Assembly (NCBI GenBank): GCA_963663895.2
Contig: CAXXRD010000001.1
Span: 512,001 to 576,000 of the forward strand
Direction of reading: 5' to 3'
DNA length: 64,000 nucleotides
Origin: Dehalococcoidia bacterium
GTDB taxonomy: Bacteria; Chloroflexota; Dehalococcoidia; Bin125
A model generated the notes under the pieces. The model searched no databases. It was not told the origin of the DNA and saw only the letters and a list, made by a program, of their open reading frames with translations. Of this stretch, positions 17,283 to 37,998 are shown piece after piece. The translations under genes and the position numbers were made by a program. The number at the start of each line of letters is the position of its first letter. Position 1 is the stretch's first letter.

Positions 17283-20159
17283 TCACGCTGGCTGATCGAT
17301 CTCGAAGACCTTCAGCACTTCGTCGCCGTAGTGGTTGATCACCTTGACGGCGATCTTGCCGCTCGCGGGAGGCGGGAAGGGGCGACTGCGCGTCGCGTAG
17401 AGCGACGCCCACGCTTCCTCGTCGATCTCAGCGCGGAGCGCGCGCTTGAGCCGATCGTAGGGCTCGTCCGCGCCGGTGAAGTAGGCGTGGCGCACGAAGA
17501 AGCTCTGCTCGTCGTAGTCGCTGTCGATGAACCAGCAGGCGATATCATCCGTGGAGGCGGATCGCACCGCGCCGGTGGTCGGATCGTAGACATCGACGCC
17601 GCGTATCTCGACGACGATCGCGCCATCCGGCGTTCGCTCGATCTCAACATCCGGCTCGCCGAAGACGGTGAAGAGGTTGCCGGCGCCGGTCTTCTTCAGT
17701 AGCTCGTCGCCCATCGCGAGGTCGGGGTTCATCCGCGCGAGCATCACCGGCAGCTTGCCGTACTTGCGTTCGCTCTCGGCGACGGCGAAGCTGTCATCCT
17801 CGCCGCTCCCAGCGCCCGGCGCGGAGGCGAACTCCTCTGTTTTCTCGCCGGCGCGGGCGTCGAAGGCGAAACCGCAGACCACGAGCAGGTCGTAGCCGAG
17901 GCCGCGGATCGCCGCCTTCGCCGCCCGCTCCACCTGCTCCGCGCCGACCGTCCCGTGCTCGGGGCCGATCGAGACGGCGACGCGCCGGGGCGTGCCGCCC
18001 TTGTCCTCGAACTCGCCCTCGGCGTGAATCCAGGGATCGCCCGCCAGCGGGTCGAGGCGCGAGAAGACGAGCCGCTCGTCACGCTTCGTATTCTGCACGC
18101 CGGCTTTGCCGAGATTCTCGATGATGGTGGCGGCGAAGTCCGGGCGCACTGGATCTCCCGTCGCCTCGCGCACCGCGGCGGGCACATCCTCGTCGGCGGC
18201 GATCATGCGGTGCGGCGAGAGGCTCTCGACGGTGAACGGGCCGGCGACGCGCACACGGCTGCTGTCCTCGTAGGGTTGGTCGTAGAGGATCTCGCTCTCC
18301 GAGTTGCGGGCGATCGACTCGTCGATCTCACGCTGGCGGGCGAGGCGCTGCTCCCACCACTGCTTGTGCGCCGCAGCGGCCGGGGCCGGCCACGCCTCGC
18401 CGGCCTTGCGGGGAACCTCCCACTCCTCCCAGGACTCGCCCAACGCATCGTTGAGCGCCGCGCGCAGCGGTTCGAGGCGCTCCTGGAAGCGCTCCCAGAT
18501 GTCGTCGATCTCCTCGTTGTTGGCGATGTCGCGCAGTTGGATGTGCGGCGCGCGCCTGTAGACGAAGCCCTGCCGTACGTCGCCCGAGGTCGGGCCGTCG
18601 CCGGCGGGCCGGCCGCTGACCTTCGCCTCCTGCGCGCGGCCCTCGGGCGTGTCGGCAAGGTGATAGTACGGATAGCGGGCCGCCATCAGCCGCGTGCGCG
18701 CCAGCGTCAGCGCCACCCGCGACGTGTCGACCGTGATCCAGCGCCGTCCCCACTGCTCGGCGACGTACGCCGTCGTGCCGCTGCCGCACGTCGGGTCGAG
18801 CACGAGGTCGCCGGGATCCGTCGCCATGAGAATGCAGCGCTCGATGACTTTGTTCGTGGTCTGAACGACATAGATCTTCGGGTCGTTGAAACCCCCGGAC
18901 TGCGTATCGAGCCACATGTTCGTGAGCGCCGTAGCTGCGAACGAGTCCCAGTACAGCTTGTGGTGGACCGAGCTTCCTGAACGGAGAATCTTGCCGGCGC
19001 GGACCAGCCGGTCACGGCCGACACGCTTTACTTTCCAGTGCTGGTTCGCAGGGGGCTCGAAGACACTCCCCTCAAAGACGAACTCTTGGTCACCGGAACT
19101 TCGACCCTCGGACAAGAGCGGCCCGCTCCGGAATATTCGTGCTCCATCCGGGAGTGCTCTGCGGCGCTGCCGCTCATCTCTCGTCATGCGACGTATCGTC
19201 CCGTCAGACAGCTCTAGCAGCACGTAATTCGGGTCGGTCATCGGAGGCTCTGGTTGTAGCTGGAATATCTTTCTGGTCTTCGCAAGAGAAGCGTCACGTG
19301 CATACCAAAGCACGTGGTCGGAGACGTTCCCGATCGCAGCCTGACCGAAGCCTCCGGTCTTCTGGAACGTGACACTTGACACGAAGCCGTCACTGCCGAA
19401 GACCTCATCCAGCAGTGAGCGGACGAGATGCACGTTCTCATCGCCGATCTGGACGAAGATGCTGCCCGTCTCGTTGAGCAGCTCGCGAGCAACCCTGAAG
19501 CGATCACGCAGGTAGGTAAGGTAGGAGTGGATGTGGAGTTTCCAGGTGTCGCGGAAGGCGCGCACCTGCTCGGGCTGCCGCGTCGTGTCCTCGGCGCGGC
19601 CGTCGCGCACGTCGCGCTTGCGGGTGGAGACCTGCCAGTTGGAGCCGAACTTGATGCCGTAGGGCGGGTCGATATAGATGCACTGGACCTTGCCGCGCAG
19701 CCCCTCCTTCTCCGCCAGCGAGGTCATGACCAACAGTGAGTCGCCGAGGATCATGCGGTTGGACCAGTGCTGGTCGTGCTCGTAGAACTCCAGCTTCCGC
19801 TCCAGGTCGTCCAAGCCGTTGAAGTCGGCGAAGAGGTCGAGCTGGTGCGCGCCCTGCGGATGGCCGTTGCGCCGCAGATCCTCAATGATCGCCTGCGGCT
19901 GGATCTTCTCCTGGATGTAGACGGGCACGACGGGTACAACGAGGTCGTCGCCGTCGAGATCATCCTTGCCCTGCCAGACGAGCTGGGGGTCGAGCGCGGG
20001 ATCGCGCGGCCAGCGCAAGTGGTCGCGGATGTCCTCCTCTTCGTCGGGGATGAACTCGCGCAGCTCCTCGGTGGGGATGTTCTTGCGGCTGTCCTCGTGC
20101 CGGATCGCGTCGATCCGGGTTCGCCTCTTGCTCTTCTTGCCGCGCCGCGGCGCCATCAT
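17283..20159 (-). CDS. mod: Type III R-M DNA methyltransferase (Mod)
   Basis: NRMILGDSL, YIDPPYG, VLDPTCGSGTT; TGATG-coupled to res. Confidence 0.9.
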   Translation of the reverse strand: MMAPRRGKKSKRRTRIDAIRHEDSRKNIPTEELREFIPDEEEDIRDHLRWPRDPALDPQLVWQGKDDLDGDDLVVPVVPVYIQEKIQPQAIIEDLRRNGHPQGAHQLDLFADFNGLDDLERKLEFYEHDQHWSNRMILGDSLLVMTSLAEKEGLRGKVQCIYIDPPYGIKFGSNWQVSTRKRDVRDGRAEDTTRQPEQVRAFRDTWKLHIHSYLTYLRDRFRVARELLNETGSIFVQIGDENVHLVRSLLDEVFGSDGFVSSVTFQKTGGFGQAAIGNVSDHVLWYARDASLAKTRKIFQLQPEPPMTDPNYVLLELSDGTIRRMTRDERQRRRALPDGARIFRSGPLLSEGRSSGDQEFVFEGSVFEPPANQHWKVKRVGRDRLVRAGKILRSGSSVHHKLYWDSFAATALTNMWLDTQSGGFNDPKIYVVQTTNKVIERCILMATDPGDLVLDPTCGSGTTAYVAEQWGRRWITVDTSRVALTLARTRLMAARYPYYHLADTPEGRAQEAKVSGRPAGDGPTSGDVRQGFVYRRAPHIQLRDIANNEEIDDIWERFQERLEPLRAALNDALGESWEEWEVPRKAGEAWPAPAAAAHKQWWEQRLARQREIDESIARNSESEILYDQPYEDSSRVRVAGPFTVESLSPHRMIAADEDVPAAVREATGDPVRPDFAATIIENLGKAGVQNTKRDERLVFSRLDPLAGDPWIHAEGEFEDKGGTPRRVAVSIGPEHGTVGAEQVERAAKAAIRGLGYDLLVVCGFAFDARAGEKTEEFASAPGAGSGEDDSFAVAESERKYGKLPVMLARMNPDLAMGDELLKKTGAGNLFTVFGEPDVEIERTPDGAIVVEIRGVDVYDPTTGAVRSASTDDIACWFIDSDYDEQSFFVRHAYFTGADEPYDRLKRALRAEIDEEAWASLYATRSRPFPPPASGKIAVKVINHYGDEVLKVFEIDQPA

Positions 20160-23100
20160 CAGCCTCCCGCCGCCTGCGCCGGCAGGTCGCGCTCCGCGAG
20201 CCAGGCGCGCAGCTCGGTTCGCAGGTTCCACGGGTCGCGCGCCTCGAAGAAGGCCCAGCGGCCCCAGCCGCCGGCGTTGTTGAGGGCGGGCGCCCAGAGC
20301 GTGCGCGCCGCTTCCGCCTTGGCCTGCTTCTCGGGCAAGTCGCGCCCGCTGACCTCCAGGACGACGTTGAGCAGGTCGCCGGGGCCATGCCCGTCCTCAA
20401 CGTGGGCGATGAAGTCCGGATAGTACCAGCGCTCAACGCCGGCGTGCGTGTAAGGAATGCGGAACTCGCAGCCGTGGTTCTTCACGTAGTGCAGGACTTC
20501 CGGCATCGTCTCCAGGGTTTCGGCGGTTTTCTGCTCCCAGCTGCCGGTGTCGGCGACGACGTGCGAGACGTGGCACTTGGCCTCGTTCGTAACCATCAGT
20601 GGGCGCGTGGTTTGCAAGTCGACGAAGCGCGAGGAGGCGCGTGGGTTGTAGTGGTTGACGATCGGCTTGAGCCGCTCGGCGCCCGGCCCGGAACGCGCGA
20701 TCGAACTGAAGATGCGCTCGGCGGCGCGGTCGCCGAGCCCGCCGACGAGCAGCAGTTGCGGATAGACGTTGTCCTTGAGAACAACGCACTCGCGCAGCCA
20801 CTGGCCTGCGATGCGCAGCAGCGACGGGAATGCCCAAAGTTGCCAGTTACCATCGCCATCGCGGAACTTCCGCTCCAGCACGCGACGCGCGAGGTGGAAG
20901 GCGATCGTCTGCTCCCGTTGCGCGCGCAGTGATTCCAACGTGTGCCTCTTGTCTTCGCCGATGATCGAGGAAACGTGCGTCTCCGTTGGCACGTCCTGTG
21001 TAGAGATGGCCATCCGCGAGTCCTCGCCGAACTGAGCCGTCAGCCGCTGCGGTGCGATGTCGTAGCGGTAGCCGGTGAGGTTCGGGAACGTGATCTCGGC
21101 GTGAGCGCGATCCGGCAGAGCGCGTACACGGGCCGGCTGCGGGCCGTCAATGACGCCCGTCGCCGCGCCGGAGGCGGGGATGAACGAGAAGGGAACGCCG
21201 TAGACCTCAGCGTACTCAGCGTCGAACATTCCCTCCGTGTTCGGCTCGTAGCTGCGTCGTCGCAGCGCCCGTCCAACGACCTGCTCGCAGAGCAATTGCG
21301 TGCCGAAAGCGCGGACGCCGAGAATGTGCGTGACGGTGTTCGCGTCCCAACCTTCGGTCAGCATCGAGACGGAGACCACGCACCGGATGCGCTCGCCGAG
21401 GCGTCCCGGCTTGCCGACGGTGTTCATGACCTCGCGCAGTAGATCTTCATCGCTCAGCGCCTCGGCATCGCGGCCGGGATAGCGGCGGCGGTACTCACGC
21501 TTGAACTCCTCGATCTCGCGCTTCGCGACACGCTTAAAGGTGCCGCTCATCTGCTCGCCGGACTCCAGCTCGGCGCTGTCGATCAGGATCGTGTTCGGCC
21601 GATCGCTCCAGCGGCCATCCATCGTATTGCTGAAAAGCGGCAGGGCGCCGTCGTGAACGTACGGCCCGGCACCGTCCCCGCGCTGCTCCTCCCAACCGCC
21701 CACGAAGTCGTAAATCAACTTCGAGACGTTGGTGTTGTTGCAAACAATGATGAAGACGGGCGGCGAGCCGTGCTCGCGGGCGGCCGCATCGGCTTCCCAG
21801 CGCTCGTGGGAACGCTTGTAGTTGTCGTAGAGCTGGCGCAATGCCGCTTCCAGAGCTTCGGGTAAGTGCGGCTCGCCGGAGACCGTATCGACCTTACGCC
21901 CGTGCTTCGGAAGACCGTCGCGGATCTGGATCCAGAGGTTGCGATAGACCGGCAGATCCGAAGTTCCCGCATCGTCGCTAACCGGTACGCGTGGAACCTT
22001 CACGATCCCGCTCTCGATCGCATCGATCAGTGAGAAGTCGGAGACCACCCACGGGAACAACGTGCCTTCGTCGTAGCCGGAGCCGCGCAGAAAGAACGGC
22101 GTCGCCGAGAGGTCATAGACAACCTTGATGCCAAGTCTCCGCTGCACCGCCTGTAAGCCGGTGAGCCAGACGCGGGCATCCTCATTGCGCTGCTTGGCCT
22201 CGCGACGTTCGTCGGCGCTCAGTCGCTGCTTCTTCGCCGCCTCGCGCCCGCGGTAGCAGTGGTGCGCCTCGTCGTTGAAGACGATGATCTGCCGCTTCGT
22301 CCCGAGGCCGAGCTCGCGACGCAGACGCATCACCACCTGCGCCTCCGTCTCGACGTGTCCGACGCCTATGGGCGCACCGCCCGCCTCAATGATCGCCTGA
22401 TGCAATTTGCCGGCGTCGCTCGTCTTGCGCGGTTGGAACTTGTGGTAGTTGGCTATATGAATCTTCGCCTGCCCGAGCCGATCGGTGAGATCGGGCGGCA
22501 CGATGTCGCGCTCCGCGTAGTAGTTCCCCGGATCGCTCGGCAGTAGTACGCGCAGCCGGTCGCGGATGGTGATGCCGGGCGTCACTACGAGGAAAGCGTC
22601 GGTGAAGCGCGCGTCGCGTGATGCGGCGTGCTTGTTCAGCGACTGCCACGCGATCAGCATCGCCATCAGCACCGTCTTGCCGGAACCGGTCGCCATCTTG
22701 AAAGCGATGCGGTAGAGACCGTCGTTCCACTCGCGCGCGTGATCCCGCAGTTGGTTCTCGATCCAACTGTCGCCATGCCGCGACGCGACCTCTGCTAGGT
22801 AGATCGCGGTCTCGGCGGCTTCGATCTGACAGAAGAAGAGCTTGCGCTCACGGTCCGGCGACTGCCAGTAGTCGAGCAGGCGACGGGTGGTGCGCGTCAC
22901 ACCGACATAGCCACCATTCCGCCAGCGCACCACGCGTTCACGCACACGGTTGACGAACTCGTTCTCCTCGATACGGTCCTGCGTCCACTCTGCGGCAAGG
23001 GCAAGTTGCCCTTGGCTTCGCTTTGAAGCCGGCACCGGCACGAAATACGAACTCGGCCGCCGACCTTCGACGATGTCGCTTGTGATCCCTTGGTCGTCGA

Positions 23101-23170
23101 AGCGGAAGTGACGGCTCGGCTCCACGAACGGTGAATTGAGGACCGGGTTCTCGATGACGACGTTCGGCAT
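20159..23170 (-). CDS. res: Type III R-M restriction endonuclease/helicase (Res)
   Basis: MATGSGKT, DEAH, LSATP, EGWD, QVVGRALRR, PD-(D/E)xK-like YYPDF...LEVSG. Confidence 0.9.
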   Translation of the reverse strand: MPNVVIENPVLNSPFVEPSRHFRFDDQGITSDIVEGRRPSSYFVPVPASKRSQGQLALAAEWTQDRIEENEFVNRVRERVVRWRNGGYVGVTRTTRRLLDYWQSPDRERKLFFCQIEAAETAIYLAEVASRHGDSWIENQLRDHAREWNDGLYRIAFKMATGSGKTVLMAMLIAWQSLNKHAASRDARFTDAFLVVTPGITIRDRLRVLLPSDPGNYYAERDIVPPDLTDRLGQAKIHIANYHKFQPRKTSDAGKLHQAIIEAGGAPIGVGHVETEAQVVMRLRRELGLGTKRQIIVFNDEAHHCYRGREAAKKQRLSADERREAKQRNEDARVWLTGLQAVQRRLGIKVVYDLSATPFFLRGSGYDEGTLFPWVVSDFSLIDAIESGIVKVPRVPVSDDAGTSDLPVYRNLWIQIRDGLPKHGRKVDTVSGEPHLPEALEAALRQLYDNYKRSHERWEADAAAREHGSPPVFIIVCNNTNVSKLIYDFVGGWEEQRGDGAGPYVHDGALPLFSNTMDGRWSDRPNTILIDSAELESGEQMSGTFKRVAKREIEEFKREYRRRYPGRDAEALSDEDLLREVMNTVGKPGRLGERIRCVVSVSMLTEGWDANTVTHILGVRAFGTQLLCEQVVGRALRRRSYEPNTEGMFDAEYAEVYGVPFSFIPASGAATGVIDGPQPARVRALPDRAHAEITFPNLTGYRYDIAPQRLTAQFGEDSRMAISTQDVPTETHVSSIIGEDKRHTLESLRAQREQTIAFHLARRVLERKFRDGDGNWQLWAFPSLLRIAGQWLRECVVLKDNVYPQLLLVGGLGDRAAERIFSSIARSGPGAERLKPIVNHYNPRASSRFVDLQTTRPLMVTNEAKCHVSHVVADTGSWEQKTAETLETMPEVLHYVKNHGCEFRIPYTHAGVERWYYPDFIAHVEDGHGPGDLLNVVLEVSGRDLPEKQAKAEAARTLWAPALNNAGGWGRWAFFEARDPWNLRTELRAWLAERDLPAQAAGG

Positions 23171-23191
23171 CAGTACTCCCAGCACGTTTGC

Positions 23192-23374
23192 GCAGCCGTA
23201 GAGGCGAAGATTACAGCCTCATGGGAGAAGAGAGGGGTCCGAGGATCAGTACCCATCCACGAACTGGCCGAGTCAGCCGCTTGCGTCACCACTGCACAAA
23301 CATCGGGATCAATGTTCCAAAACGACCAAAAGGGCAGTGTGTCATTCGCCTTGATTGTTCGTCTCTCGGGATGA
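23192..23374 (+). pseudogene. Recombinase C-terminal remnant spanning the internal att copy
   Basis: AVEAKITASWEKRGVRGSVPIHE...VTTAQTSG-SMFQ...RLSG*, homologous to the remnant at 31046-31240. Confidence 0.7.
23285..23306. repeat. att-like direct repeat of the dnaN 3' end
   Basis: GTCACCACTGCACAAACATCGG vs GTCACCATTGAACAAACATCGG; minus strand encodes PMFVQW* in both. Confidence 0.85.
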
Positions 23375-23671
23375 GGTGCTCGAACCGGCTCCCTTCTCGG
23401 CGATCGCGCCGTCTATGCGTCGACGCCGACTGACCATGTGCTCGGGCGAAGAGCTGGGCATTCGGCGTCTCGCGAGGCTACCGCTCTGAGCCCGGCCCGC
23501 CTGTGGATGAAGGGGAAAACGTCCACGGTTCGCGACCATCCCGGTGGGCCTACACGTACTGTACTGCGAACTTTCTCGTGGGCGGTCTCGCTATAGACCG
23601 CTCTGACCAAGCGGAGACTGGTGAAGACCATCCCTCCAAGACAGTACCCGCGCTTCGACACTTCCCAACGC

Positions 23672-24178
23672 TCAGTCTGCGAGTGCCTTCAACAGAGCCT
23701 CGCGGGCGTCGGAGTAGTAGAGGATTGTGAGCTTCGTGGCCATCTCGTCGGAGAGGTCGTTCAGCTGTTTCCTGGCCGAGATTGACACCAAGAGGGCGCT
23801 GGCGGCCTTCTCGACAGCCAGTTCCGCGACCCTCACAGGGTCGTAGACCGGGTCGATCGCGCCACCGAGATTGAGTCCACCCACGGCGACCAAGGCCTCG
23901 CGCAGGCTCTTGCCAAGCAATGCACTGCACAAGGCGAGTAGCGCCGGAAGCCCCAAGAACGCCCCGCTGCGGGATGCGTCGAAACTGCGAAGCTGCACCA
24001 AAAACTCGTGCGCGCTTGGGCTCCGGTCGCCCACAAGCTCGTTGGCGCGCGCCATCAGGTTGCCTTCCGCGTAGCGGACGCTCTCGCGGAACGGTCCCGG
24101 AGCTGGGACATTCGTGATCCGTACACCGGAACCCGGGTTCACGTTGACGTCGATACGGTAGAGCCCGGCGTGCTCATC
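23672..24178 (-). pseudogene. brxL: C-terminal fragment of BREX Lon-like protein BrxL
   Basis: GLYRIDV..PGSG, F.VQLRSFD, GGLNLGG, EMATKL..YYSDAREALLKAL; AAA+ part missing. Confidence 0.72.
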
Positions 24179-24195
24179 TGGTAGAGGGGTAGGCG

Positions 24196-25452
24196 CTACT
24201 CGTTGCGGAGCGCGGCGATCGGGTCGACGGTGGTGGCGCGATAGGCCGGGTAGCTGCCGCTCGCGAAGCCCACGCCTGCCGCCACCAGGAACGCCATCGC
24301 GATGCTCCAGGGCTGGATCAGTGTCGTCATCTCCTGGCCGCCCAGTTCGCGCCCGTCGACGGCGAGCGAGGCGCCGATGCCGATCGCGATCCCCACGACG
24401 CCGCCGAAGAGGCTGAGCGTCAGCGCCTCGGTCACGAACTGCTTGACGATGTCGCCGGCCGTCGCGCCCACGGCGCGGCGGATGCCGATCTCGCGGGTCC
24501 GCTCGGTGACGGAGACGAGCATGATGTTCATCACCCCGATCCCGCCGACCAGCAGCGAGATGCCGGCGATGCTGCCGAGCAGGATCGAGAGGGTGTTGCT
24601 GACCTCGGTAGCGGCGCTGATCAGGTCGTCCTGGCTCTGGATCACGAAGTCCGGCTCGGGCGTCTCGTGGAGGAAGAGCAGCAACTCGCTGACCTCGTCC
24701 TTGACGCGCTGCTCGTCGGCGCCGCTGGCGGTCTGGATGTCGATCTGCGTGACGCGCAGGTCGCCGGTGGGCGTGTAGAGGAAGCGCAGGCGGCCGGCGA
24801 CGCCGCTCAGCGGAACGAAGACCTGGTCGTTCGCCTCGCTCGCGCCGCCCTGCTCCTCGAGCACGCCGACCACGATGAAGGGGAACGTGATCCGCCCGCC
24901 CGCGAAGGAGAGCCGCACCTCCTGCCCGACGGGATCGAGGCCCCGGTAGAGGGTGTCGGCGACGCGCGCGCCCAGCGCGGCGACCAGCGAGCCGTCCTCG
25001 TCGTGCAACGGGGTGATGAAGGTCCCGGAGCGAATCCCCAGGTCGCGAACCTCAGCGTACGTGCTCGAGGTGCCGACGATCTCCGCGCCGACGTTGTTCG
25101 AACCGGCGACCGCCTGCGCGTCGACCGCGATCTGCGCCGCGACCGAGACGACGCCGGGGATCGCGTTGTCGGCGATCGCGGTCGCATCGCCCTGCACCAG
25201 CGTGGACTGCGCGAGCCCGCCGAGGCCTCCCGTTTGCGAGGTCGTCGCCGCCACGCTCGACTCGATGAAGATCAGGTCGGTGCCGAGTCCCCGGATCTGA
25301 TCCGTGACGCCGCGCTGCGTGCCCTGACCGACCGCGATCAACACGATCACAGAGCTGACGCCGATCACGAGGCCGAGCGAGGTGAGCGCGCTGCGCAGCC
25401 GGTTCGCGAAGATCGCACGCAGCGCGATGCGGAACGCGTCGAACGGGCTCAC
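24196..25452 (-). CDS. MacB/FtsX-like ABC permease
   Basis: NRLRSALT, GGIGVMNIMLVSVTERTREIGIRRAVGA, DPIAALRNE. Confidence 0.93.
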   Translation of the reverse strand: MSPFDAFRIALRAIFANRLRSALTSLGLVIGVSSVIVLIAVGQGTQRGVTDQIRGLGTDLIFIESSVAATTSQTGGLGGLAQSTLVQGDATAIADNAIPGVVSVAAQIAVDAQAVAGSNNVGAEIVGTSSTYAEVRDLGIRSGTFITPLHDEDGSLVAALGARVADTLYRGLDPVGQEVRLSFAGGRITFPFIVVGVLEEQGGASEANDQVFVPLSGVAGRLRFLYTPTGDLRVTQIDIQTASGADEQRVKDEVSELLLFLHETPEPDFVIQSQDDLISAATEVSNTLSILLGSIAGISLLVGGIGVMNIMLVSVTERTREIGIRRAVGATAGDIVKQFVTEALTLSLFGGVVGIAIGIGASLAVDGRELGGQEMTTLIQPWSIAMAFLVAAGVGFASGSYPAYRATTVDPIAALRNE

Positions 25453-26156
25453 GGCACGGGCCCGTCCGCTGTCGCAGCCGCCACCGGGGCGCCGCTGTCC
25501 TCGATGATCCGTCCGTCGCGCATGCGCATGGTCCGGTTGGCATAGGCGGCGACCTCCGCCTCGTGCGTCACGAGCACGACCGTCAGCCCCTGCTGATCGA
25601 CCAGCTCGCTGAGCAGCGTCATCAGCTCGTGTTCGGTCGCCGTATCGAGGGCGCCCGTCGGCTCGTCGGCGAGTAGCACCAGCGGGTTCACGACCAGCGA
25701 GCGCGCGATCGCGACGCGCTGCTGCTCGCCGCCGGACAGCTCGGTCGGCAGGTGCGTGATGCGGTCCTGCAGGCCGACGCGCACGAGCGCCTCGGCGGCG
25801 CGCCGCTTGCGGTTGGGCGCACCCTGGTAGATCAGCGGCAGATCGACCTGCTCGAGGGCGGTCATGCGTGGCAGCAGGTTGTAAGACTGGAAGACGAAGC
25901 CGAAGGCGCTGCCGCGCAGCCGTGCGCGGGCGTCCTCGGAGAGCTGCGCGACATCGCGTCCCCCGAAGCCGTACTCGCCGCTGCTGGGGCGGTCGAGCAG
26001 GCCGATGATGTTCATCAGCGTGCTCTTGCCGGAGCCGGACTGCCCCATGATCGCGACGAACTCGCCTCGCCCGATCTCGAGGCTCACGCCGGCGAGGGCA
26101 TGCACCGCCGTCTCGCCGCTGGCGTAGATACGGGTCACGTCCTGGAGGTGGATCAC
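25449..26156 (-). CDS. ABC ATP-binding protein (LolD/MacB-type)
   Basis: GQSGSGKST, LSGGEQQRVA, LADEPTG. Confidence 0.93.
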   Translation of the reverse strand: MIHLQDVTRIYASGETAVHALAGVSLEIGRGEFVAIMGQSGSGKSTLMNIIGLLDRPSSGEYGFGGRDVAQLSEDARARLRGSAFGFVFQSYNLLPRMTALEQVDLPLIYQGAPNRKRRAAEALVRVGLQDRITHLPTELSGGEQQRVAIARSLVVNPLVLLADEPTGALDTATEHELMTLLSELVDQQGLTVVLVTHEAEVAAYANRTMRMRDGRIIEDSGAPVAAATADGPVP

Positions 26157-28624
26157 TGGCCGCCTCCGCCACCTCCACCGCCGCCGCCGAAGAAGCGGCC
26201 GGGGCCGAAGGCTGGGAGCTGCTGCTGCGGTTGCCGCTGTGTGGCGCTGAAGGCGATGCCCGCGCTATCCGCGCCGATCAGCAGCACAGCGCCGGCCTTG
26301 AGGCCGCTCGTGATCTCGACGTTTGTGCCGTCCGACTCACCGATCTCGACAGTCACGCGCTCGAAGGCGAGGGCGGCCGGGTCGTCGCCCGCGGCGGGCG
26401 CCGGGATGGTGACGAACCACGCGCCGTCGAGCTGGCGCACGGCGGCGACCGGGACGAGCACCGAGGGCTCGCGCAGCTCGGTTAGGATCGTGACGCTGGC
26501 GCTCATGCCGGGTGCGGGGAGCGGCCGGGCGGCGAGTGCGCCCTGCCCGGTTGCGCCTGGCCGGCCGTCGGCGCCTTCTCCGCCGGCCGCCCCGAGCACA
26601 CCCGCGGCGATCCGCTCGAGGAGCTGCGGCGGGATCTCGAAGCCCTCGGGCAGGTTCACGCCCTCCGGGAGCGGCTCGCCGGCCGCCAGCGCCTGCAGTA
26701 CGTCGCGGATGGTCGTGCCCTCGGGAAGTTCGATCTGGGCGAGCAGTCCGCCGCCGGCCCCGGCGCGGCCGCCTGCACCGCCACCTGCATCGGCTCCCGC
26801 AGCGCCGAGGATCGCCGCCAGACCCCCGGTCTGGTCGCTGAGGACGGCAATCTCGCTCGCGACCTGGGCGATCTCCGCTCCGGCGAGAATCCGCGCCTCC
26901 ACGTCGTACGTCACTACCCCCTGAGCGGCGTTCGGCAGGCGGCTGATCGACGCGATGCGCACCGGGTACTCGACGTTCTCGATGGCGTCGAACGATGCGA
27001 GACCGATCTGGCCGACCTCGAGGGCGAGCAGGTCCGCCTCGGTCACGGTAAGCGCGATCAGCATGCGGTCGGTGGTGCTCAGGGAGAACGCGGCGAAGTT
27101 GGCCGCCACGCGATCGCCGGGCTGCACGTTCACGGCCTCGACGATGCCGTCGAAGGGCGCAAGCACCGTCAGCTCCGCGAGGGCGGTGCGCGCCTCCTCG
27201 AGGGAGATCTCGGAGAGCCGCACGCTCTGCTCCTGCTGGGCGATCGCGTTCGCCGTCGCGCCCCCCGCCAGCTCGTCGTAGCGCGCCTGCGCGCTGGCGA
27301 GGCTGGCGAGCGCGGTCTCGAGCGAGGCGCGCGCCTGCTCGATCTCGCCCTCGTCGGCGGGTGCGCGCAGCTCAGCGAGGCGGGCGACGGCCGCAGCGTG
27401 ATTCGCCCGCGCCGCCTCCACCGACCGCTCTGCCTGGAAGCGATCCTCCTCGCTGGGCTCCGCGGTCAACTCGGCCAGGCGGGCGACGGCCGCGGCGTGG
27501 TTCGCCCGGGCCGCTTCCACCGACTGCTGCGCCTGGTAGCGGTCCTGCTCGGAGACCGGCGCGAGCAGGTCGGCGAGCCGCTCCTCGGCGGAGCCAAGCG
27601 TCGTGACGGCCGACTGCCTGGTCGCGTCGGCGCTGATGAACGCGACATTGGCGTTGATCAGAGCGTTCGCCGTGCGCTGATAGTTGTTCGACCTGTCCTC
27701 GAAGGAGTCGCGGAGCACGGCGATCTGCGCGTCGGAGAGCGGCAACGCGGCTGCGCAGGTCGTTTCGGTCACATCGGGAAGGTGGTCGTAGCCCTCGCAG
27801 TACGCCTCGAACGCGTTCCCAAGGGCGTGCCACGCGTCGTCCGCCCCACTGATCGCGCCAGAGAGCTGCGCCTGCGCCTGCGCCACGGCGGACCGCGCGG
27901 ACGCGATCTCCGTCTCGCTCGGGTCGGCGGTCAACGCAGCCAGCGCCTCCTCGGCGCTCGAGAGCTGACCGAGGGCGTTCGCCACCGCCTGCTCCGCGCT
28001 CGCCTGCGCGCTCGCCTCCGGCGGCTCGGACAGCCGCGCCTGCGCCTCTTCCGCGCTCGAGAGTTGCCCGAGGGCGTTCGCGACGGATTGCTCCGCGCTC
28101 GCCTGCGCGCTCGCCTCCGGCGGCTCGGAGAGCCGGGCCAACGCCTGCTCCGCGTTCACGACCTGCGCCTCGGACGATTCGATCGACTGCCTCGCGGACG
28201 CGATGGCGGACGCCTCGGGGTCGGCCTCGAGGGCGTCGAGGCGCAACTGTGCGAGGCGCAGCTGCACCTCCGCGGTCTCGACCCGCCGCTGCGCGTCGGA
28301 GTCGTCGAGCGTCGCCAGCGCGTCTCCGGCGCGCACCGTATCGCCGCTCTCCACGGCGACGGAGGCGACGATCCCGGCGGCGCCGAAGCTGAGGTTGGCG
28401 CTGCGCTCGGCCTCCGCCGAGCCGGACAGGTCGACCGTGGTGCTCAGTTGGCCCTCGACGGCTTCGGCACGCTGCGGCTCGGCGACCACCTCGGTGTCGT
28501 CGGGCTGGAGCAGCACGAACACGGCCACCGCCGCTGCGGCAATCGCCAGCGCGGCCGCCAGCACCAGCCAGCGCCTGCGCGAACGGCGGCCGCGGATCAG
28601 CAGATCGATGTCAACGTCGCTCAT
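26153..28624 (-). CDS. Elongated HlyD/MacA-like periplasmic adaptor
   Basis: N-terminal TM, lipoyl halves (V.SGD.V; APFDGIV), long helical hairpin with 33-aa repeats. Confidence 0.85.
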   Translation of the reverse strand: MSDVDIDLLIRGRRSRRRWLVLAAALAIAAAAVAVFVLLQPDDTEVVAEPQRAEAVEGQLSTTVDLSGSAEAERSANLSFGAAGIVASVAVESGDTVRAGDALATLDDSDAQRRVETAEVQLRLAQLRLDALEADPEASAIASARQSIESSEAQVVNAEQALARLSEPPEASAQASAEQSVANALGQLSSAEEAQARLSEPPEASAQASAEQAVANALGQLSSAEEALAALTADPSETEIASARSAVAQAQAQLSGAISGADDAWHALGNAFEAYCEGYDHLPDVTETTCAAALPLSDAQIAVLRDSFEDRSNNYQRTANALINANVAFISADATRQSAVTTLGSAEERLADLLAPVSEQDRYQAQQSVEAARANHAAAVARLAELTAEPSEEDRFQAERSVEAARANHAAAVARLAELRAPADEGEIEQARASLETALASLASAQARYDELAGGATANAIAQQEQSVRLSEISLEEARTALAELTVLAPFDGIVEAVNVQPGDRVAANFAAFSLSTTDRMLIALTVTEADLLALEVGQIGLASFDAIENVEYPVRIASISRLPNAAQGVVTYDVEARILAGAEIAQVASEIAVLSDQTGGLAAILGAAGADAGGGAGGRAGAGGGLLAQIELPEGTTIRDVLQALAAGEPLPEGVNLPEGFEIPPQLLERIAAGVLGAAGGEGADGRPGATGQGALAARPLPAPGMSASVTILTELREPSVLVPVAAVRQLDGAWFVTIPAPAAGDDPAALAFERVTVEIGESDGTNVEITSGLKAGAVLLIGADSAGIAFSATQRQPQQQLPAFGPGRFFGGGGGGGGGGQ

Positions 28625-28687
28625 GGTCGTCTCTCACACCCCGATCGGAGAAGCTGGAACAGGTCGGCGCAACAGTGCACCGCGTCG

Positions 28688-28736
28688 CATAACGCCCTCG
28701 TAACCTCGCGCGCTCCGTACGTTACGTTCGCGTTAG
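28688..28736. promoter_or_regulatory. Two oppositely oriented pairs of 11-bp-spaced direct repeats, candidate OmpR-family sites
   Basis: CATAAC/CGTAAC (28688, 28699) and CGTTAC/CGTTAG (28720, 28731) between divergent operons. Confidence 0.45.
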
Positions 28737-28786
28737 GGTCGAAGGGGTAGCCTGCGTGTGGCCGGTGGGCTGCAGGAGCGACGCCT

Positions 28787-29443
28787 ATGCGCGTGCTGCT
28801 GGTGGAGGACGAGCGCGACCTCGCGAACGCGATCGCGAGGGGTCTGCGCCGCGACGGGCTCGCCGTCGACATCGCCTTCGACGGCGCCACTGCCCTCGAG
28901 AAGGCAACGGTGCACCCCTACGACGTCGTCGTGCTCGACCGCGACCTGCCCCTCGTCCACGGCGACGAGGTCTGCCGCGAGCTGGTCGCTGCCGAGGGCG
29001 ACTCCCGCATCCTCATGCTCACCGCCGCCGCCGCCGTGCACGACCGCATCGAGGGCCTCGACCTCGGAGCGGACGACTACCTCTCCAAGCCGTTCGACAT
29101 CGGCGAGTTGCGCGCGCGGATCCGCGCGCTGGGGCGGCGTTCGCAGCCGGCGGCGCACCCGGTGCTCGAGCGCGGCGGCGTGGTCCTCGATGCCGCGCGG
29201 CGCAGCGCCACGCGCGACGGGCGCGAGCTCGGCCTCACGCGCAAGGAGTTCGTGGTGCTGCAGGTGCTGCTCGAGGCGGAGGGCGCCGTCGTCAGCCCCG
29301 AGGAGCTGCTGGACCGCGCCTGGGACGAGCACACCGACCCATTCACAAACGTGGTGCGCGTGACGATCATGAAGCTGCGCAAGAGCCTCGGAGAGCCGCC
29401 GCTGATCGAGACGCTGCGCGGCGTCGGCTACCGCATCCTCTGA
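28787..29443 (+). CDS. OmpR-family response regulator
   Basis: VLLVED, LDRDLP, GADDYLSKPF, IETLRGVGY. Confidence 0.93.
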   Translation: MRVLLVEDERDLANAIARGLRRDGLAVDIAFDGATALEKATVHPYDVVVLDRDLPLVHGDEVCRELVAAEGDSRILMLTAAAAVHDRIEGLDLGADDYLSKPFDIGELRARIRALGRRSQPAAHPVLERGGVVLDAARRSATRDGRELGLTRKEFVVLQVLLEAEGAVVSPEELLDRAWDEHTDPFTNVVRVTIMKLRKSLGEPPLIETLRGVGYRIL

Positions 29444-30690
29444 TGCGCTTGCCGGGCGCCGTGATTCCCCAGCCGTCGATCCGGCTGCGCCTGACGCTCT
29501 GGTACGGCGGGCTGTTCCTGCTGGCGGGCACGGTGCTGCTCGGGCTCAACTTCGCGCTCGTTGCCCGTAACTTCCCCTCCGACGGGGCCGACCTGCGCGA
29601 GAACGTCGAGCGCCGCTTCGACCTCGATCCGGGCGAACTGCGCGGGGAGGTCTTCTTCGTCGTCGAGCGGCCAGCGACGCCGGGACGGTCGGTTGGTCCG
29701 CGGCGGGGTGTCGCCGCCACGCCGCTCTTCAACAGCGTCATCTCGCACATCAAGACCGACACCCTCCAGCAGATCGTCTGGCAATCGGGTGTCGCGCTCG
29801 GGCTGATGGCCGTGCTCTCGATCGGCCTCGGCTGGTTCGTCGCCGGGCGGATGCTGCGACCCGTTGAGGAGATCGCAGCCACCGCGCGCCGCATCAGCGA
29901 GGCGAGCCTGGAGGAGCGGATCGCCCTCGGCGGGCCGTCCGACGAACTCAAGGATCTCGCCGACCAGTTCGACGCGATGCTCGATCGCCTGCAGACCGCC
30001 TTCGAGGCGCAACGCGAGTTCGTCGCCAACGCCTCGCACGAGCTGCGCACCCCACTCACGATCATCCGCACCGAGATCGACGTCACCCTCGACGACCCGG
30101 ACTCCGGCCGCGAGCAGCTCGAACGGACCGCCGAGGTCGTCCGCCGTGCGATCGACCGCACCGAGGGCCTGATCGACCGCCTGGTGGTCCTCGCCCGCGC
30201 CGAGGAGCCGCTCCAGCGCGGCGAGGAGAGTGAGCTTGCCGACGCCGTCCGGCGCGCCCTCGACGCACGCGAGACGGAGATCGCCGAGCTGGGTCTCCGC
30301 GTCACGCTCGACCCCGGCGAGGCGACCGTCGAGGGCGACCTGATGCTGCTCGACCGGCTGGCCGGCAACCTCGTCGACAACGCCGTCGAGCACAACGAGC
30401 GCGACGGATGGATCGAGATCACGAGCGGACAGGACGAGCAGACGGTGACGCTGAGCGTCGCCAACGGCGGGCCGCTCATTCCCGAGGGCGAGGCGCCGCG
30501 GCTGTTCGAGCGCTTCGCACGGGCGGAGGGCTCGCGCACTCGCCCGCGCGGCGGCTACGGCCTCGGACTCTCGATCGTGCGCGCGATCGTGCGCGCCCAC
30601 CGCGGCGAGGTGACGGCGCGTGCGCTGTCCGAGGGCGGCCTCACCGTCGAGGTTTCGCTGCCCCGCCGGCGCCAGGGTTCGTCCCAGTAG
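29443..30690 (+). CDS. HAMP sensor histidine kinase
   Basis: ASHELRTPL, NLVDNA, GYGLGLSIV. Confidence 0.93.
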   Translation: MRLPGAVIPQPSIRLRLTLWYGGLFLLAGTVLLGLNFALVARNFPSDGADLRENVERRFDLDPGELRGEVFFVVERPATPGRSVGPRRGVAATPLFNSVISHIKTDTLQQIVWQSGVALGLMAVLSIGLGWFVAGRMLRPVEEIAATARRISEASLEERIALGGPSDELKDLADQFDAMLDRLQTAFEAQREFVANASHELRTPLTIIRTEIDVTLDDPDSGREQLERTAEVVRRAIDRTEGLIDRLVVLARAEEPLQRGEESELADAVRRALDARETEIAELGLRVTLDPGEATVEGDLMLLDRLAGNLVDNAVEHNERDGWIEITSGQDEQTVTLSVANGGPLIPEGEAPRLFERFARAEGSRTRPRGGYGLGLSIVRAIVRAHRGEVTARALSEGGLTVEVSLPRRRQGSSQ

Positions 30691-30703
30691 CGCCGCCGCG
30701 CCC

Positions 30704-31045
30704 TCAGCGCTCCATCAGCACCGCGCCCGCTCCAATACGCGGTCGAGGTCGATGATCACCGCGACGCCCCCAGGCGGTCCGGGTCGCGGTCGCGCTCAAG
30801 CCTGTGCGAGCCCTCGAAGATGGCGTCGCGGGCCTCCGGGTCGTCGACGATGCGTGCGCGGCCGTGGAACTGCCACATCTGGCGTTGAGCCGGGTGCGGT
30901 AGAGGAAGGCGATGCGCGGATTGACGGCGATCCGGCGCAGGATGTCGCCGGCCGGGTTCCGCACCCAGATCGCGAGTTGATCGGCACTGTGGACCTGCGT
31001 GCTGCCGTAGAAGGAGAGGCTCGGCTGGCCCTCGCCGTCGCCACC
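30704..31045 (-). pseudogene. Pyridoxamine 5'-phosphate oxidase-like fragment, 5'-truncated and frameshifted
   Basis: GQPSLSFYGSTQV...NPRIAFLY in one frame, QFHGRARIVDD...ERDRDP in another. Confidence 0.6.
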
Positions 31046-31240
31046 GATATGCCACGAATGCTGCAACGGATCCGACGATGGATCGCCGAAGCCGACGGAG
31101 ACGATCTCGATCTACTGTTAACGGCCGTGGATGCGAAGGTCATAGCCTCGCGTGAACGGGCCGAGATTCGGGGCTCGGTACCAGCCTATGAGCAAGCTTC
31201 GCAGGCCGATTTAGTCACCATTGAACAAACATCGGCATGA
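31046..31240 (+). pseudogene. Recombinase C-terminal remnant ending antisense inside dnaN
   Basis: LQRIRRWIAEADGDDLDLLLTAVDAKVIASRERAEIRGSVP...LVTIEQTSA*; large-serine-recombinase call is from recalled family style. Confidence 0.65.
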
Positions 31241-32348
31241 TGACGTGGACGTAGTTCTCGCGCTCGTCGGGGCGGAACACGCCCGGATTCGAGGGGCCCG
31301 TCGTCTCCAACCGGACCTTCCCCTTCTCCAAGACCTGTAGCACGTCCTGGAGATAGCGGTTGTTGAAGGCGATGCGGCCCTCCTCGCCCTCGATGGCGGC
31401 ATCCATCTGTCCCTCGTGCTCGCCTTGCTCGTCCGCCCGCGCGGAGACGGAGACGCGCCCGCCGCCGTCCTCCGGGCGCAGCAGCACGCGCACGATGCCG
31501 CTGCCGTCACGCGCGAACACGGCGGCGGTCTTCACCTCGCGCAGGAACTCGCCGCCGTCCATGATCGCCCGCGTTTGGTACTCCGAGGGGATGAGTTGCT
31601 GGTAGCTGGGGAAGGTCCCCTGAATGAGCTGCGCCGTGAGCTCGATGTCGCTGAACTTGAGCAAGACCTGGCTGCGGGCGCTGTTGAGCTGCAGCAGCAC
31701 GGGCTCGTCCTGCTCCGGCAAGAGGCGCCCCAAATCTTGCAGGGCCCGCGCCGGCACGATGATCTCGATCGGCTCCGGCAATAGCTCCGCGATGTCGAGG
31801 TGGTAGACGGCCAGGCGAAAGCCGTCCGCGCCCGCCAGGGTGAGGCGGCCTTCCTCGATCTTGAGCTGCACGCCCGTCAGGACCGGCCGACTGTCGTCCG
31901 TGGCGGCGGCGAAGCCCACGTGCTCCACCGCCTCTCGCAGGGCCTGCGGCTCCAAGCGGATCACGTCCCCTTCGGTGATGGACGGGATCGGGGGAAAGTC
32001 GTCCGCGTCCATGCCGCTGATGGAGGCCTCGTTGCGGGCGCAAACGATCTGCGCCTGCCGGGAGCGCGCGGCCACGCTGAAGTCGATCTCCGCCGACGGC
32101 AGCGAGGAGACGAACTCGCTGAGCAGCCGCGCGGGGATCGTGATCGCTCCGGGCTCCTCGACGCGCGCGCCCACCCACGAGGTGAGCGCGATCTGGAGGT
32201 TGGTGGCGGCGAGCTTGAGCCGGTCCTCTTCCGCGGAGAGCAGCACGTGCGAGGTCTGGGGCAGCGTGGGGCGCGACGCGACCGCGCGTCCCACAATATC
32301 GAGGCCTCGCTTGAGCGCCTCTTGCTGGACCGCCAGTTTCACCCGCAA
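31215..32348 (-). CDS. dnaN: DNA polymerase III beta sliding clamp
   Basis: LAATNL, SRPVLTGV, ADGFRLA, GTFPSY, IMPM. Confidence 0.97.
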   Translation of the reverse strand: MRVKLAVQQEALKRGLDIVGRAVASRPTLPQTSHVLLSAEEDRLKLAATNLQIALTSWVGARVEEPGAITIPARLLSEFVSSLPSAEIDFSVAARSRQAQIVCARNEASISGMDADDFPPIPSITEGDVIRLEPQALREAVEHVGFAAATDDSRPVLTGVQLKIEEGRLTLAGADGFRLAVYHLDIAELLPEPIEIIVPARALQDLGRLLPEQDEPVLLQLNSARSQVLLKFSDIELTAQLIQGTFPSYQQLIPSEYQTRAIMDGGEFLREVKTAAVFARDGSGIVRVLLRPEDGGGRVSVSARADEQGEHEGQMDAAIEGEEGRIAFNNRYLQDVLQVLEKGKVRLETTGPSNPGVFRPDERENYVHVIMPMFVQW

Positions 32349-32465
32349 GCCTCCACGGCCCTACAAATGCGAATCGATCTATGCGATTGACTGGATGATT
32401 GTAGAGCACCAGAGAGGCCAATAGCGACGCAACAGCGGGCAGTTGCGCGGCAGTCGACAGAAGTT

Positions 32466-32485
32466 CGTGGAGAAACGGTGGATAA
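32466..32485 (-). promoter_or_regulatory. Two DnaA-box-like 9-mers upstream of dnaN
   Basis: TTATCCACC and TTCTCCACG vs consensus TTATCCACA, 11 nt apart. Confidence 0.45.
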
Positions 32486-32491
32486 CGTGCG

Positions 32492-33790
32492 TTATCGGCT
32501 GCGAGCGACTTCGTCAAGGGCCTTCGCGATGGCGGATTCGGTGAAGGCGATCACTTCGTTGGTGTGCGCCAGCGAGACGAACATGGCCTCGAACTGGGAA
32601 GGCGCGACGTTGACCCCCGCGGCCAGGGCGGCGTGGCAGAAGCGTGCATAGGCCGCCGTGTCGCTGGCCTGGGCCGTGGCAAGATCCGTGGGCGGCTGGG
32701 CCTGGAAGAAGACGGTGAGCAGGGAGCCGGCGCGGCTCACCGTGACCGGCAGGGACGCGCGCCGCGCCGCCGCCGTGATCGCCGCCGCCAGCCGGGCGGC
32801 GCGCCGATCGAGCCGGTCGTAGACGCCGGGATCGCTCAGCTCGTCGAGCGTCGCGACGCCGGCCGCCATCGCCAGCGTATTGCCCGCCAGGGTCCCCGCT
32901 TGATAAACAGCGCCCAGCGGCGCCAGGTGCTTCATGATCGCCGCCGGGCCGCCCACGGCGCCGATCGGGAGCCCGCCCCCGATGATCTTGCCCAAGCAGG
33001 TGAGGTCCGGCGTGACGCCGAACTGCGCCTGGGCGCCGCCGCGGGTGAGGCGAAATCCCGTGATCACCTCATCGAAGATGAGGAGCGCCCCGGCGCCGAG
33101 GGTGATCTCCCGCAGCCCTTCCAAGAAGCCCGGCTGCGGCGGCACGAGGCCCATGTTGGCGGCCACCGGCTCCACGATCACGCCCGCCAGATCATCGGCG
33201 TAGGCGCGAACGATGCGCTCGACGCCCGCCAGATCGTTGTAGCGGGCGACCAAGGTCTCGGCGGCGTAGCTCGCGGGGACGCCGGCGCTGTCCGGCAAGC
33301 CCAACGTGGCGAGCCCCGACCCCGATCGCGCCAGCAGGCCGCCGGCGTGCCCGTGGTAGCAGCCGGCGAACTTGATCAGCTTGTTGCGGCCCGTATACCC
33401 GCGCGCGAGCCGGATGGCGGTCATCGTCGCCTCGGTGCCGGAGTTGACGAACCGCACCTGCTCGATCGAGGGGACCGCGGCCACGACCCGCCGCGCGAGC
33501 GCCGTCTCCAACTCCGTGGGGGCGCCGAAGGCCGTCCCGGCGGCGGCGGCATCGCGGATCGCGCCAATGACGGCCGGATGGGCGTGCCCCAGGATCAGCG
33601 GCCCGTAGGCGCACACGTAGTCCGCGTAGGCATTGCCGTCCAAGTCGTAGATGTAGGCGCCACTGCCGCGGTCGATGACGGGCGGCTCTCCGCCGACCGC
33701 GCCAAAGGCCCGCACGGGGCTATTCACGCCCCCGGGAAAGAGCTCCTGCGCGGCCTGAAACGCCGCCCGCGACCGCGGCCGGTCTCTCAC
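32492..33790 (-). CDS. hemL: Glutamate-1-semialdehyde 2,1-aminomutase
   Basis: PGGVNSPVRAF, NSGTEA, DEVITGFR, GKIIGGGLP. Confidence 0.95.
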   Translation of the reverse strand: MRDRPRSRAAFQAAQELFPGGVNSPVRAFGAVGGEPPVIDRGSGAYIYDLDGNAYADYVCAYGPLILGHAHPAVIGAIRDAAAAGTAFGAPTELETALARRVVAAVPSIEQVRFVNSGTEATMTAIRLARGYTGRNKLIKFAGCYHGHAGGLLARSGSGLATLGLPDSAGVPASYAAETLVARYNDLAGVERIVRAYADDLAGVIVEPVAANMGLVPPQPGFLEGLREITLGAGALLIFDEVITGFRLTRGGAQAQFGVTPDLTCLGKIIGGGLPIGAVGGPAAIMKHLAPLGAVYQAGTLAGNTLAMAAGVATLDELSDPGVYDRLDRRAARLAAAITAAARRASLPVTVSRAGSLLTVFFQAQPPTDLATAQASDTAAYARFCHAALAAGVNVAPSQFEAMFVSLAHTNEVIAFTESAIAKALDEVARSR

Positions 33791-34563
33791 GGCGCCGCCG
33801 CGGGAATGAGGCGCAAGAGCCCGCGCAGGTCGGGGAAGGTCCAAGTGGCCTCGAACGCCGGTTGATGGGAGGGCGTCTCGCGCTCGAAGCGCTGCACCCG
33901 GTAGACCGGCATCCCCACGCTGCGGGCGCCCGTGACGTCCGCGATCGGATGGTCGCCCACGTGCAGCACTTGCGCGGCCGGCAGGTCGAGCGCCCGCAGC
34001 ACGGCCTCGTAGAAGGGACGGCGCGGTTTGTAGGCGCGCACGTCTTCCGACGACACGACAACGTCCACGCTGATCTCCGCGCCCCGCAGCGCCGCGGCCA
34101 GGTGCCCGCGATCGGCGTTGCTCGCCACCGCGACGGTCACGCCCGCCGCCCGGATCCCATCGACCACCTCCTTGCTCTCCTCGTAGGCCGGCGCCCGCCC
34201 GAGCTCGTCGAGCAGATAAGCCGTCGCCGCATGCGCATCGACCGCGCTGACCTTCCATAGATCGAGGGCGTAGCCGAAGAACAGCGGCCAGCTCTCTTGG
34301 AAGGTGCGGAACGGGGGCTCGGGCCCGTCCAGGGGCCGCTCCGGATCGAGTCCCATCGTCTTGGCGAACTCCCTCGCGGCCTTGATCCAGTCGTCCCAGA
34401 CCGCGCCCGCGTCGGCGGCGACGCCGTGCCGGGCGAAGAGGGTGCGGATCGCCGGAACGAACGCTCGTTCGTCGAAGTCAATGAGGGTGCCGTAGCAGTC
34501 GAAGGCGACTGCCCGGATGTGCGAGAGGTCGACGCCCGCTAGTCCGTTGCTCGTTGCAGCCAG
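33787..34563 (-). CDS. HAD-family hydrolase
   Basis: FDCYGTL, ASN, YKP, HVGD..AD; start uncertain (possible CTG). Confidence 0.85.
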
Positions 34564-37997: not shown

Positions 37998-37998
37998 G

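Follow-up and report, generated by a model that had tools for sequence, protein, structure and literature searches.

The DNA analyzed here, a window of 64,000 nucleotides from the genome of a Dehalococcoidia bacterium, contains dnaN, the gene for the beta clamp of DNA polymerase III, and beyond its 3' end, between 17.2 and 31.2 kb, what very likely remains of two, or perhaps three, integrative elements belonging to a single large serine recombinase (LSR) family that targets the last seven codons of dnaN. The dnaN gene lies on the minus strand (31215-32348), encodes 377 amino acids ending in VIMPMFVQW, and has the three beta-clamp domains DNA_pol3_beta, DNA_pol3_beta_2 and DNA_pol3_beta_3 of Pfam. 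Its score with TIGR00663 is 283.8 bits, above the equivalog cut-off of 137.65, and it is the single dnaN detected in the whole genome (2.37 Mb in 5 contigs). The stop codon and the last six codons form the attR-like core copy B (31215-31235), which has the codons TTT GTT CAA for F-V-Q, and the same end recurs as core copy A, a displaced dnaN end, at 23286-23306, there with the codons TTT GTG CAG. As the initial annotation of this DNA had claimed, 31214-31235 and 23285-23306 are identical at 20 of 22 positions, both copies read P-M-F-V-Q-W-stop on the minus strand, and the two differences (GTT/GTG and CAA/CAG) are synonymous. Leftward of the core, an ungapped similarity between the copies can be followed, with 74 of 115 positions identical (64%) when 23192-23306 is compared with 31121-31235. 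The repeat of the dnaN end is not due to chance, because a degenerate PMFVQW pattern has four occurrences in this genome and the reversed pattern, used as a control, had no match in any of 151 sampled genomes of the class. The end of dnaN also differs from the rest of the gene in composition. The G+C content at third codon positions (GC3) is 0.57 in the last seven codons versus 0.92 in the gene body, where GTT is used for 1 of 31 valines, TTT for 2 of 11 phenylalanines and CAA for 5 of 21 glutamines, which bears out the AT-rich codons pointed out earlier.

On the plus strand, the peptides quoted in the initial annotation are present at both copies (VTIEQTSA followed by a stop at copy B, VTTAQTSG at copy A), and both belong to tails of LSRs, as had been suspected. 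Remnant B (31037-31240, plus strand) corresponds to the C-terminal 65-75 amino acids of an LSR, and its last eight codons are antisense to the dnaN end. It is 55% identical over 67 amino acids to residues 468-534 of the LSR of a related genome, G005 (BLASTP, E 2e-13). By tblastn the match extends from 31037 to 31231, and by a whole-genome search from 31013 to 31237 (residues 460-534 of the LSR). Remnant A (23180-23306, plus strand; 23180-23305 by tblastn) corresponds to the C-terminal approximately 40 amino acids of a second LSR and matches three LSRs at about residues 494-533 with E values of 2e-5 to 2e-3 (tblastn). The two remnants are approximately 50% identical to each other, and for both of them the C-terminal homology to intact LSRs is also supported by multiple alignment. 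A Pfam scan gave no match for either remnant, with nothing in 30941-31237, and the remnants are therefore identified through their relatives only. The N-terminal resolvase catalytic domain is absent from both remnants according to Pfam, and the matched portion of the LSR is C-terminal only; likewise, Pfam found neither the Recombinase domain nor the zinc-ribbon domain in the window. As the recombinases of the window are stubs of about 40 and 65-75 amino acids, nothing here can move by itself.

An intact element of this kind is found in G005, the genome of another genus in the same family as the window genome. Its LSR of 534 amino acids has the domains Resolvase (1.5e-30), Recombinase (1.9e-21) and Zn_ribbon_recom (5.5e-13), and the LSR gene is convergent with dnaN and ends inside it, so that ATIEQTSA-stop is encoded antisense to MPMFVQW-stop. 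The G005 dnaN adjoining this intact LSR also has TTT GTT CAA for F-V-Q, as does dnaN of the window, and the far end of the element, which is about 19.1 kb long, is a displaced dnaN end with the native-looking codons TTC GTC CAG. Direct repeats of the 3' end of the target bound the G005 element, and likewise the element of the window (23286-23306 and 31215-31235). We infer that the codons of core copy B were supplied by the element. The G005 LSR is below the cut-off of every LSR equivalog of NCBIfam, XisF and Ccr included, and a comparison with solved structures matched other serine recombinases, distantly. In relatives, the dnaN end thus serves as the site of serine-recombinase elements of a family that is widespread and apparently undescribed.

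With the G005 LSR as query, 80 LSR loci were retrieved from public genomes, which by their record titles are mostly metagenome-assembled genomes of Dehalococcoidia, Tepidiformaceae and other Chloroflexota. At 40 of the 80 loci dnaN is convergent and overlapped by 26-252 nt of the end of the LSR open reading frame; at three more it is convergent and the LSR frame reads on without a stop. Six loci have the LSR over an antisense dnaN end without the body of dnaN, as inner array copies would, four have the dnaN end in sense at the LSR tail, and at ten the LSR runs off the contig. The remaining 17 fall into none of these classes and include short fragments as well as the 29%-identical LSRs of Sphingomonas and Blautia. 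Recombinases convergent on and overlapping dnaN, as the initial annotation had predicted for relatives, are thus present in G005 and at half of the surveyed loci. The antisense frame over dnaN differs between LSR lineages, so that it is the site that is conserved and not a particular tail peptide. The predicted extra copies downstream of dnaN were found as well: the PMFVQW pattern is present in 125 of the 151 sampled genomes, with at least two copies in 30 of them, and multiple copies are often a few kb apart on one strand. Genome G118 of the same class has 13 dnaN ends with the exact pattern on contigs C3 to C30, and a single contig holds five of these in a stretch of 35 kb. A second arrangement also occurs, in which LSRs 42-49% identical to the G005 enzyme lie on the same strand as the displaced dnaN end and one frame off (L056:3-1421 in G017; L058, which is G005:C1:1642111-1643601; and L059:5295-6395 and L060:4008-5171, both in G002). 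The sense read-through of the displaced dnaN end places these LSRs at the far end of their element, and the four surveyed loci with the dnaN end in sense look alike.

The end peptide of dnaN is conserved across the class. In the beta clamp of Escherichia coli, the C-terminal residues contribute to the partner-binding pocket, and a corresponding role here would explain why the dnaN end is conserved and hence a dependable target.

What lies at the dnaN end varies among close relatives. Two congeners of the window genome, G001 and G002, share both flanks of the region with it. Their dnaN genes are 99% and 95% identical to that of the window, respectively, the right flanks (31300-44000) are 95% and 89% identical, and the left flank, a conserved chromosomal segment on the plus strand (11300-17143) which marks the boundary of the array away from dnaN, is 93-94% identical to G001:C5:41764-47472 and 85-86% identical to G002:C1:387242-393106. 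Between the flanks, the sequences of the three genomes differ from the base after the dnaN stop onwards. In G001 the left flank passes straight into a core copy, and that contig has four copies in a row. In a further relative, G006, core copies enclose two small cassettes in the 5.2 kb next to dnaN, and the array has no recombinase; from the sequence, one cassette likely encodes a putative transposase and a HEPN/nucleotidyltransferase pair, and the other a putative acetyltransferase. Presence and absence of DNA at the dnaN site therefore vary among close relatives, and the variable islands expected at the dnaN 3' end are found. Separately, a comparison of G002:C1:272737-405748 with 410.7-544 kb of contig C1 of this genome points to an inversion of approximately 118 kb; dnaN faces opposite ends of this block in the two genomes, and G002 has core copies at or near both presumed breakpoints (286007 and 405725).

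In the window, island 1 extends from 23307 to 31214 and island 2 from about 17.27 to 23.29 kb, with core copy A as the junction between the two. The cargo of island 1 consists, by Pfam, of a histidine kinase with HAMP, HisKA and HATPase_c domains (29440-30690, plus strand) and an OmpR-type response regulator (28787-29443, plus strand), followed on the minus strand by an HlyD-family periplasmic adaptor (26153-28624), an ABC transporter ATPase (25449-26156) and a MacB-type permease with MacB_PCD and FtsX domains (24196-25452). Next to the permease is a truncated BrxL, the Lon-like protease of bacteriophage exclusion (BREX) systems (23672-24142, minus strand; PADLOC BrxL 4.5e-37, weak matches to Lon_C and ChlI in Pfam). 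The fragment spans positions 524-677 of the 680 of the PADLOC profile, which are the last 155 or so residues, and no further BREX gene was seen near it. Island 2 carries a Type III restriction-modification system on the minus strand, with the restriction enzyme gene res at 20159-23185 (Pfam ResIII; PADLOC REase_III 1e-9) and the methyltransferase gene mod at 17283-20231 (PADLOC MTase_III 3.7e-293; Pfam N6_N4_Mtase). At its outer edge, 17254-17270 is a low-confidence candidate for a third, decayed core copy. This segment is identical at 15 of 17 positions to the core at 74.8 kb of contig C2 and lies between the flank and mod, where G001 has its outermost copy.

The start of res at 23185 directly abuts remnant A, with no other element gene there, and the left boundary copy is doubtful. 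It might thus be argued that only island 1 was integrated, and that the DNA to the left of copy A is normal chromosomal sequence next to an old scar, with the restriction-modification genes having come by another route. We consider this quite improbable. Remnant A is the tail of a second, different LSR, approximately 50% identical to remnant B, so that an LSR gene once lay where res now is. Moreover, neither G001 nor G002 was found to have the Type III genes next to the conserved flank, the G+C content of these genes (0.62-0.66) is lower than that of the window (about 0.66-0.75), and a homolog of this system is located inside the dnaN-linked array of G005. The preferred reading is therefore still that of at least two integrations at dnaN. 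Elsewhere in the window there are two diverged tandem duplications (4314-6555 and 58.8-61.5 kb) as well as tandem repeats in G+C-rich stretches, namely a 51-nt unit repeated about eight times at 52641-53048 and a 30-nt unit repeated about seven times at 13652-13871.

Island 1 starts with a conserved arm of approximately 70 nt (P'; 23307-23378, plus strand), which is found again beside other dnaN ends; it presumably comprises the right half of attP and a further conserved stretch. There are four copies of the arm in this genome, five in G001, three in G002 and two in G006. Those outside the window in this genome are at 74.8 and 83.2 kb of contig C2 and at 792.3 kb of contig C1. Both C2 copies (L001:14830 and L002:3173) are preceded by an antisense PMFVQW, again with other synonymous codons, and have counterparts at G001:C5:25556 and 17033. 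Around them are genes for a Type I restriction enzyme, a SIR2-domain protein, ABC transporters, and a Type II methyltransferase with a likely restriction enzyme. Their arm-side flanks match the G001 array copies b and a, so that the array seems to be split over two loci in this genome. The copy on contig C1 (792260-792336; L003:16260-16336, minus strand) is without a dnaN-like core, sits between katG and the gene for a membrane protein of 249 amino acids, and is also present in G001. Rfam, searched with a permissive threshold, matched the arm only at chance level (Termite-flg, E 2.5). The consensus fold is weak (-6.3 kcal/mol), with a compensatory change in 2 of 19 predicted pairs. A small open reading frame through the arm (SMFQNDQ, further on LSG-stop) was considered as a conserved recombinase tail. 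In 13 copies, counted without G001_d, which has a 1-nt insertion, and without copy B of the window, which has no such arm, the entropies by codon position are 16.5, 14.3 and 16.9. As there is no codon periodicity, the idea of a conserved tail was dropped. The 70-nt arm behaves as a conserved DNA site and not as a gene.

In the core, a spacer is surrounded by short inverted repeats, as is also the case in the sites of tyrosine recombinases, and two tyrosine-recombinase genes (C2 at 98.7 and 101.2 kb) are located approximately 15-18 kb from the copy at 83.2 kb of C2. That the repeats were made by another enzyme (a tyrosine integrase, Xer at a dif-like site, or an integron-like system), or that they are a segmental duplication, is nevertheless most improbable. 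No tyrosine recombinase of the Phage_integrase family is present in or beside the array of the window, and from its sequence one of the two genes nearby is putatively of the P4 type, which usually targets tRNA genes. In relatives the gene over the core encodes an LSR, as the convergent, overlapping genes at 40 of the 80 loci demonstrate. A flank that is 64% identical together with synonymous changes in the core is unlike a recent duplication. Tyrosine integrases, Xer/dif-type systems and integrons were rejected on this ground, as were IS110-type and HUH elements; an integron-like array is disfavored in addition by repeats that do not resemble the attC core.

Hence, the repeats are most readily read as attachment sites of LSRs, and the crossover point can be narrowed down. 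Of nine copy pairs, taken from nine genomes, eight consist of the true dnaN end and a displaced copy whose homology to dnaN begins with the CC of the proline, and one is a longer partial duplication. Visual inspection places this CC/GG between inverted repeats, of 8 nt in G005 and in G062 and with 8 of 9 positions matching in G110, a symmetry that is weaker in the copies of the window than in these three genomes. The two bases are the invariant positions of the proline codon. Attachment sites of LSRs are near-palindromes around a central dinucleotide, and the crossover accordingly appears to map to the CC of the proline codon, as the center of a near-palindromic site. The unusual codons at the end of dnaN are accounted for in this way, because the AT-rich stretch that encodes V-Q antisense is one arm of the G005 palindrome. 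In support of this, the codons for F-V-Q have a GC3 of 0.40 across 40 dnaN genes that face a convergent LSR, compared with 0.77 across 25 that do not; for annotation this means that the odd codons ending dnaN in the window would be element-derived.

In the intact elements of relatives, the LSR gene is at the dnaN-proximal end and reads towards dnaN, and the last eight or so codons of the LSR (T-I-E-Q-T-S-A) are antisense to M-P-M-F-V-Q-W-stop of dnaN. The attP core, with a synonymous copy of the dnaN end, would thus be part of the 3'-terminal coding sequence of the LSR, and the LSR would exchange strands at the CC of the proline, which is GG on the strand of the LSR gene. The host would retain dnaN through the methionine codon preceding that proline, the element would supply the last six codons, with most of the proline codon, and the stop, and the original dnaN end would be displaced to the far side of the element. 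Because the half-site on the dnaN side must encode the same peptide, an attB-like site would be regenerated and later elements could stack. New arrivals would land beside dnaN, so that island 1 would have arrived last and island 2 would be older. Both islands would have lost all of the LSR but the tail. The initial proposal of elements that carry attP in their own recombinase gene, supply the C-terminus of the clamp antisense and stack in tandem is supported by these comparisons, with the integration mechanism read from sequence. In such a system the att site would be under a double constraint, as a recombinase half-site, the C-terminal codons of the clamp and the tail of the recombinase share one core.

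Several observations weigh against the interpretation as LSR-borne islands at dnaN. No catalytic part of an LSR survives in the window, so that the evidence consists of tails with about 40 and 65-75 amino acids and of the comparison with relatives. A search of this genome with the G005 LSR gave only remnant B and an LSR-like gene on contig C3, and thus no intact LSR of the family. The C3 gene, the sole LSR-like gene found, is only 28% identical over the N-terminal 220 amino acids; as a source of the islands it was rejected, being probably unrelated, since a similar gene occurs in all relatives. With no intact family LSR found in the genome and the LSR body gone, both islands are probably fixed. 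The comparison of F-V-Q codons between 40 and 25 dnaN genes is one across mixed taxa, with genomes that, being related, do not count as independent. A host-like G+C content (0.70-0.75) is seen in the cargo of island 1, and the outer edge of island 2 is weak, as 2 of 300 shuffles reach the score of the 15-of-17 match and six targets were tried. Parts of apparently the same array are on another contig (C2 at 74.8 and 83.2 kb), which means that the dnaN locus has been rearranged. Finally, the block from 24.2 to 30.7 kb is found at higher depth in public data, in contigs 1-2% different from those across the junctions. Four public runs were aligned on 22700-31800, all as assembled Logan contigs. 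Window-identical contigs span 22700-24164 and 31011-31800, with a depth of 5-14, and the cargo between is covered by the diverged contigs at a depth of 36-59, which is three to five times as much. The window-identical contigs stop near 24193 and 31011. The higher depth together with the divergence indicates that the cargo block is also present in other, more abundant strains, and there are hints that the block of transporter and two-component genes circulates among strains in other contexts.

An alternative is that the islands are not dead. They could instead be cassettes without a recombinase, lying between intact att-like sites and mobilizable in cis, that are moved in trans by an incoming LSR. 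We regard this as unlikely, albeit less so than the other alternatives. For attL x attR recombination LSRs normally require a directionality factor, and no intact LSR of the family was found in this genome. A joint of 23306 to 31214, which an excision would leave, is not seen among the 15 of 70 joints listed for the assembled contigs, an observation that speaks neither for nor against excision. On the other hand, copies of the core and of the 70-nt arm are well preserved, with 83-88% identity, while the intervening genes vary. An LSR is also lacking within several arrays, such as that of G006 with two cassettes in 5.2 kb and that of G001 with four copies, and mobilization in trans was likewise proposed for tandem ssrA islands without an LSR (PMC3146451).

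If integration at dnaN took place as outlined above, the beta-clamp gene joins the short list of essential single-copy genes that serve as docking sites for serine-recombinase islands. The dnaN site looks common in Dehalococcoidia, with extra dnaN ends in 30 of the 151 sampled genomes, and the elements of the window are relics of its use. In these mostly uncultured bacteria the dnaN end is a simple marker for strain-specific defense and transport genes, and an LSR family with a short, class-conserved target, probably of about 40-50 bp, is of the kind sought by genome engineers. A more far-reaching view, which we put forward as speculative and rather unlikely, is that of a built-in switch between the C-terminus of the integrated LSR and a longer one of the excised LSR, combined with an open-ended docking platform at the dnaN end. 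Strand exchange would then occur two codons before the LSR stop, the stop would come from antisense dnaN, and the excised LSR would have the longer C-terminus, which could set the stability of the recombinase or its direction of action. The end of the clamp gene would be a class-wide accretion site for defense and transport cassettes, and scattered core copies would drive large inversions such as that of approximately 118 kb relative to G002. The codon-periodicity analysis of the 13 arm copies gave no evidence that the alternative LSR tail is functional.

Our literature searches turned up no description of dnaN as a target of LSRs, and the target lists in supplements of LSR-mining studies could already include it. 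Among known systems, SCCmec (staphylococcal cassette chromosome mec) of staphylococci, which is inserted by Ccr recombinases at the 3' end of rlmH (orfX), is similar in that LSR-driven islands form composite tandem arrays at the 3' end of a conserved protein-coding gene. The target gene is a different one, however, and the G005 LSR, with a CcrB score of 100.7 bits versus a cut-off of 900, is not a Ccr. To our knowledge, ccr genes are not placed antisense over their target gene. In mycobacteriophages such as BPs, attP is inside a phage gene and integration alters the C-terminus of the encoded protein, which leads to integration-dependent immunity. The likeness consists in an attP within a gene of the element and in integrated and excised forms that differ in a C-terminus; here, the stop codon of the integrated LSR would come from the dnaN of the host. 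In these phages, however, the integrase is a tyrosine integrase and the crossed gene is that of the repressor.

A mobile element adjoining dnaN is also known from pneumococci, where a prophage is located between dnaN and ychF. Its attB of 14 bp is described in connection with the ychF promoter and is apparently intergenic; in contrast to the site described here it is not in dnaN codons, and no C-terminus of the clamp is rebuilt according to that text (PMC6375853). The closest analog, as the initial annotation had already proposed, are the ssrA islands of Dehalococcoides, which are reported to be integrated by DsiB, a CcrB-like serine recombinase, with repeats of approximately 20 bp, tandem arrays and members that lack a recombinase (PMC3146451; SCCmec is also mentioned there). 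Both systems belong to the same class of bacteria and use a serine recombinase at the 3' end of a single-copy essential gene. The ssrA islands, as far as described there, target an RNA gene, that of the transfer-messenger RNA, so that their repeat need not encode a peptide, whereas the target here is the protein-coding replication gene dnaN (PMC3146451). Furthermore, their integrase module is reported to lie at attL on the reverse strand and to include a small partner, DsiA, whereas here the LSR tail overlaps the target gene (PMC3146451). Distinctive for the dnaN islands is therefore the combination of a protein-coding replication gene as target, an LSR tail and a dnaN end that are encoded on opposite strands of the same DNA, and a stop codon of the integrated LSR that is provided by host sequence.

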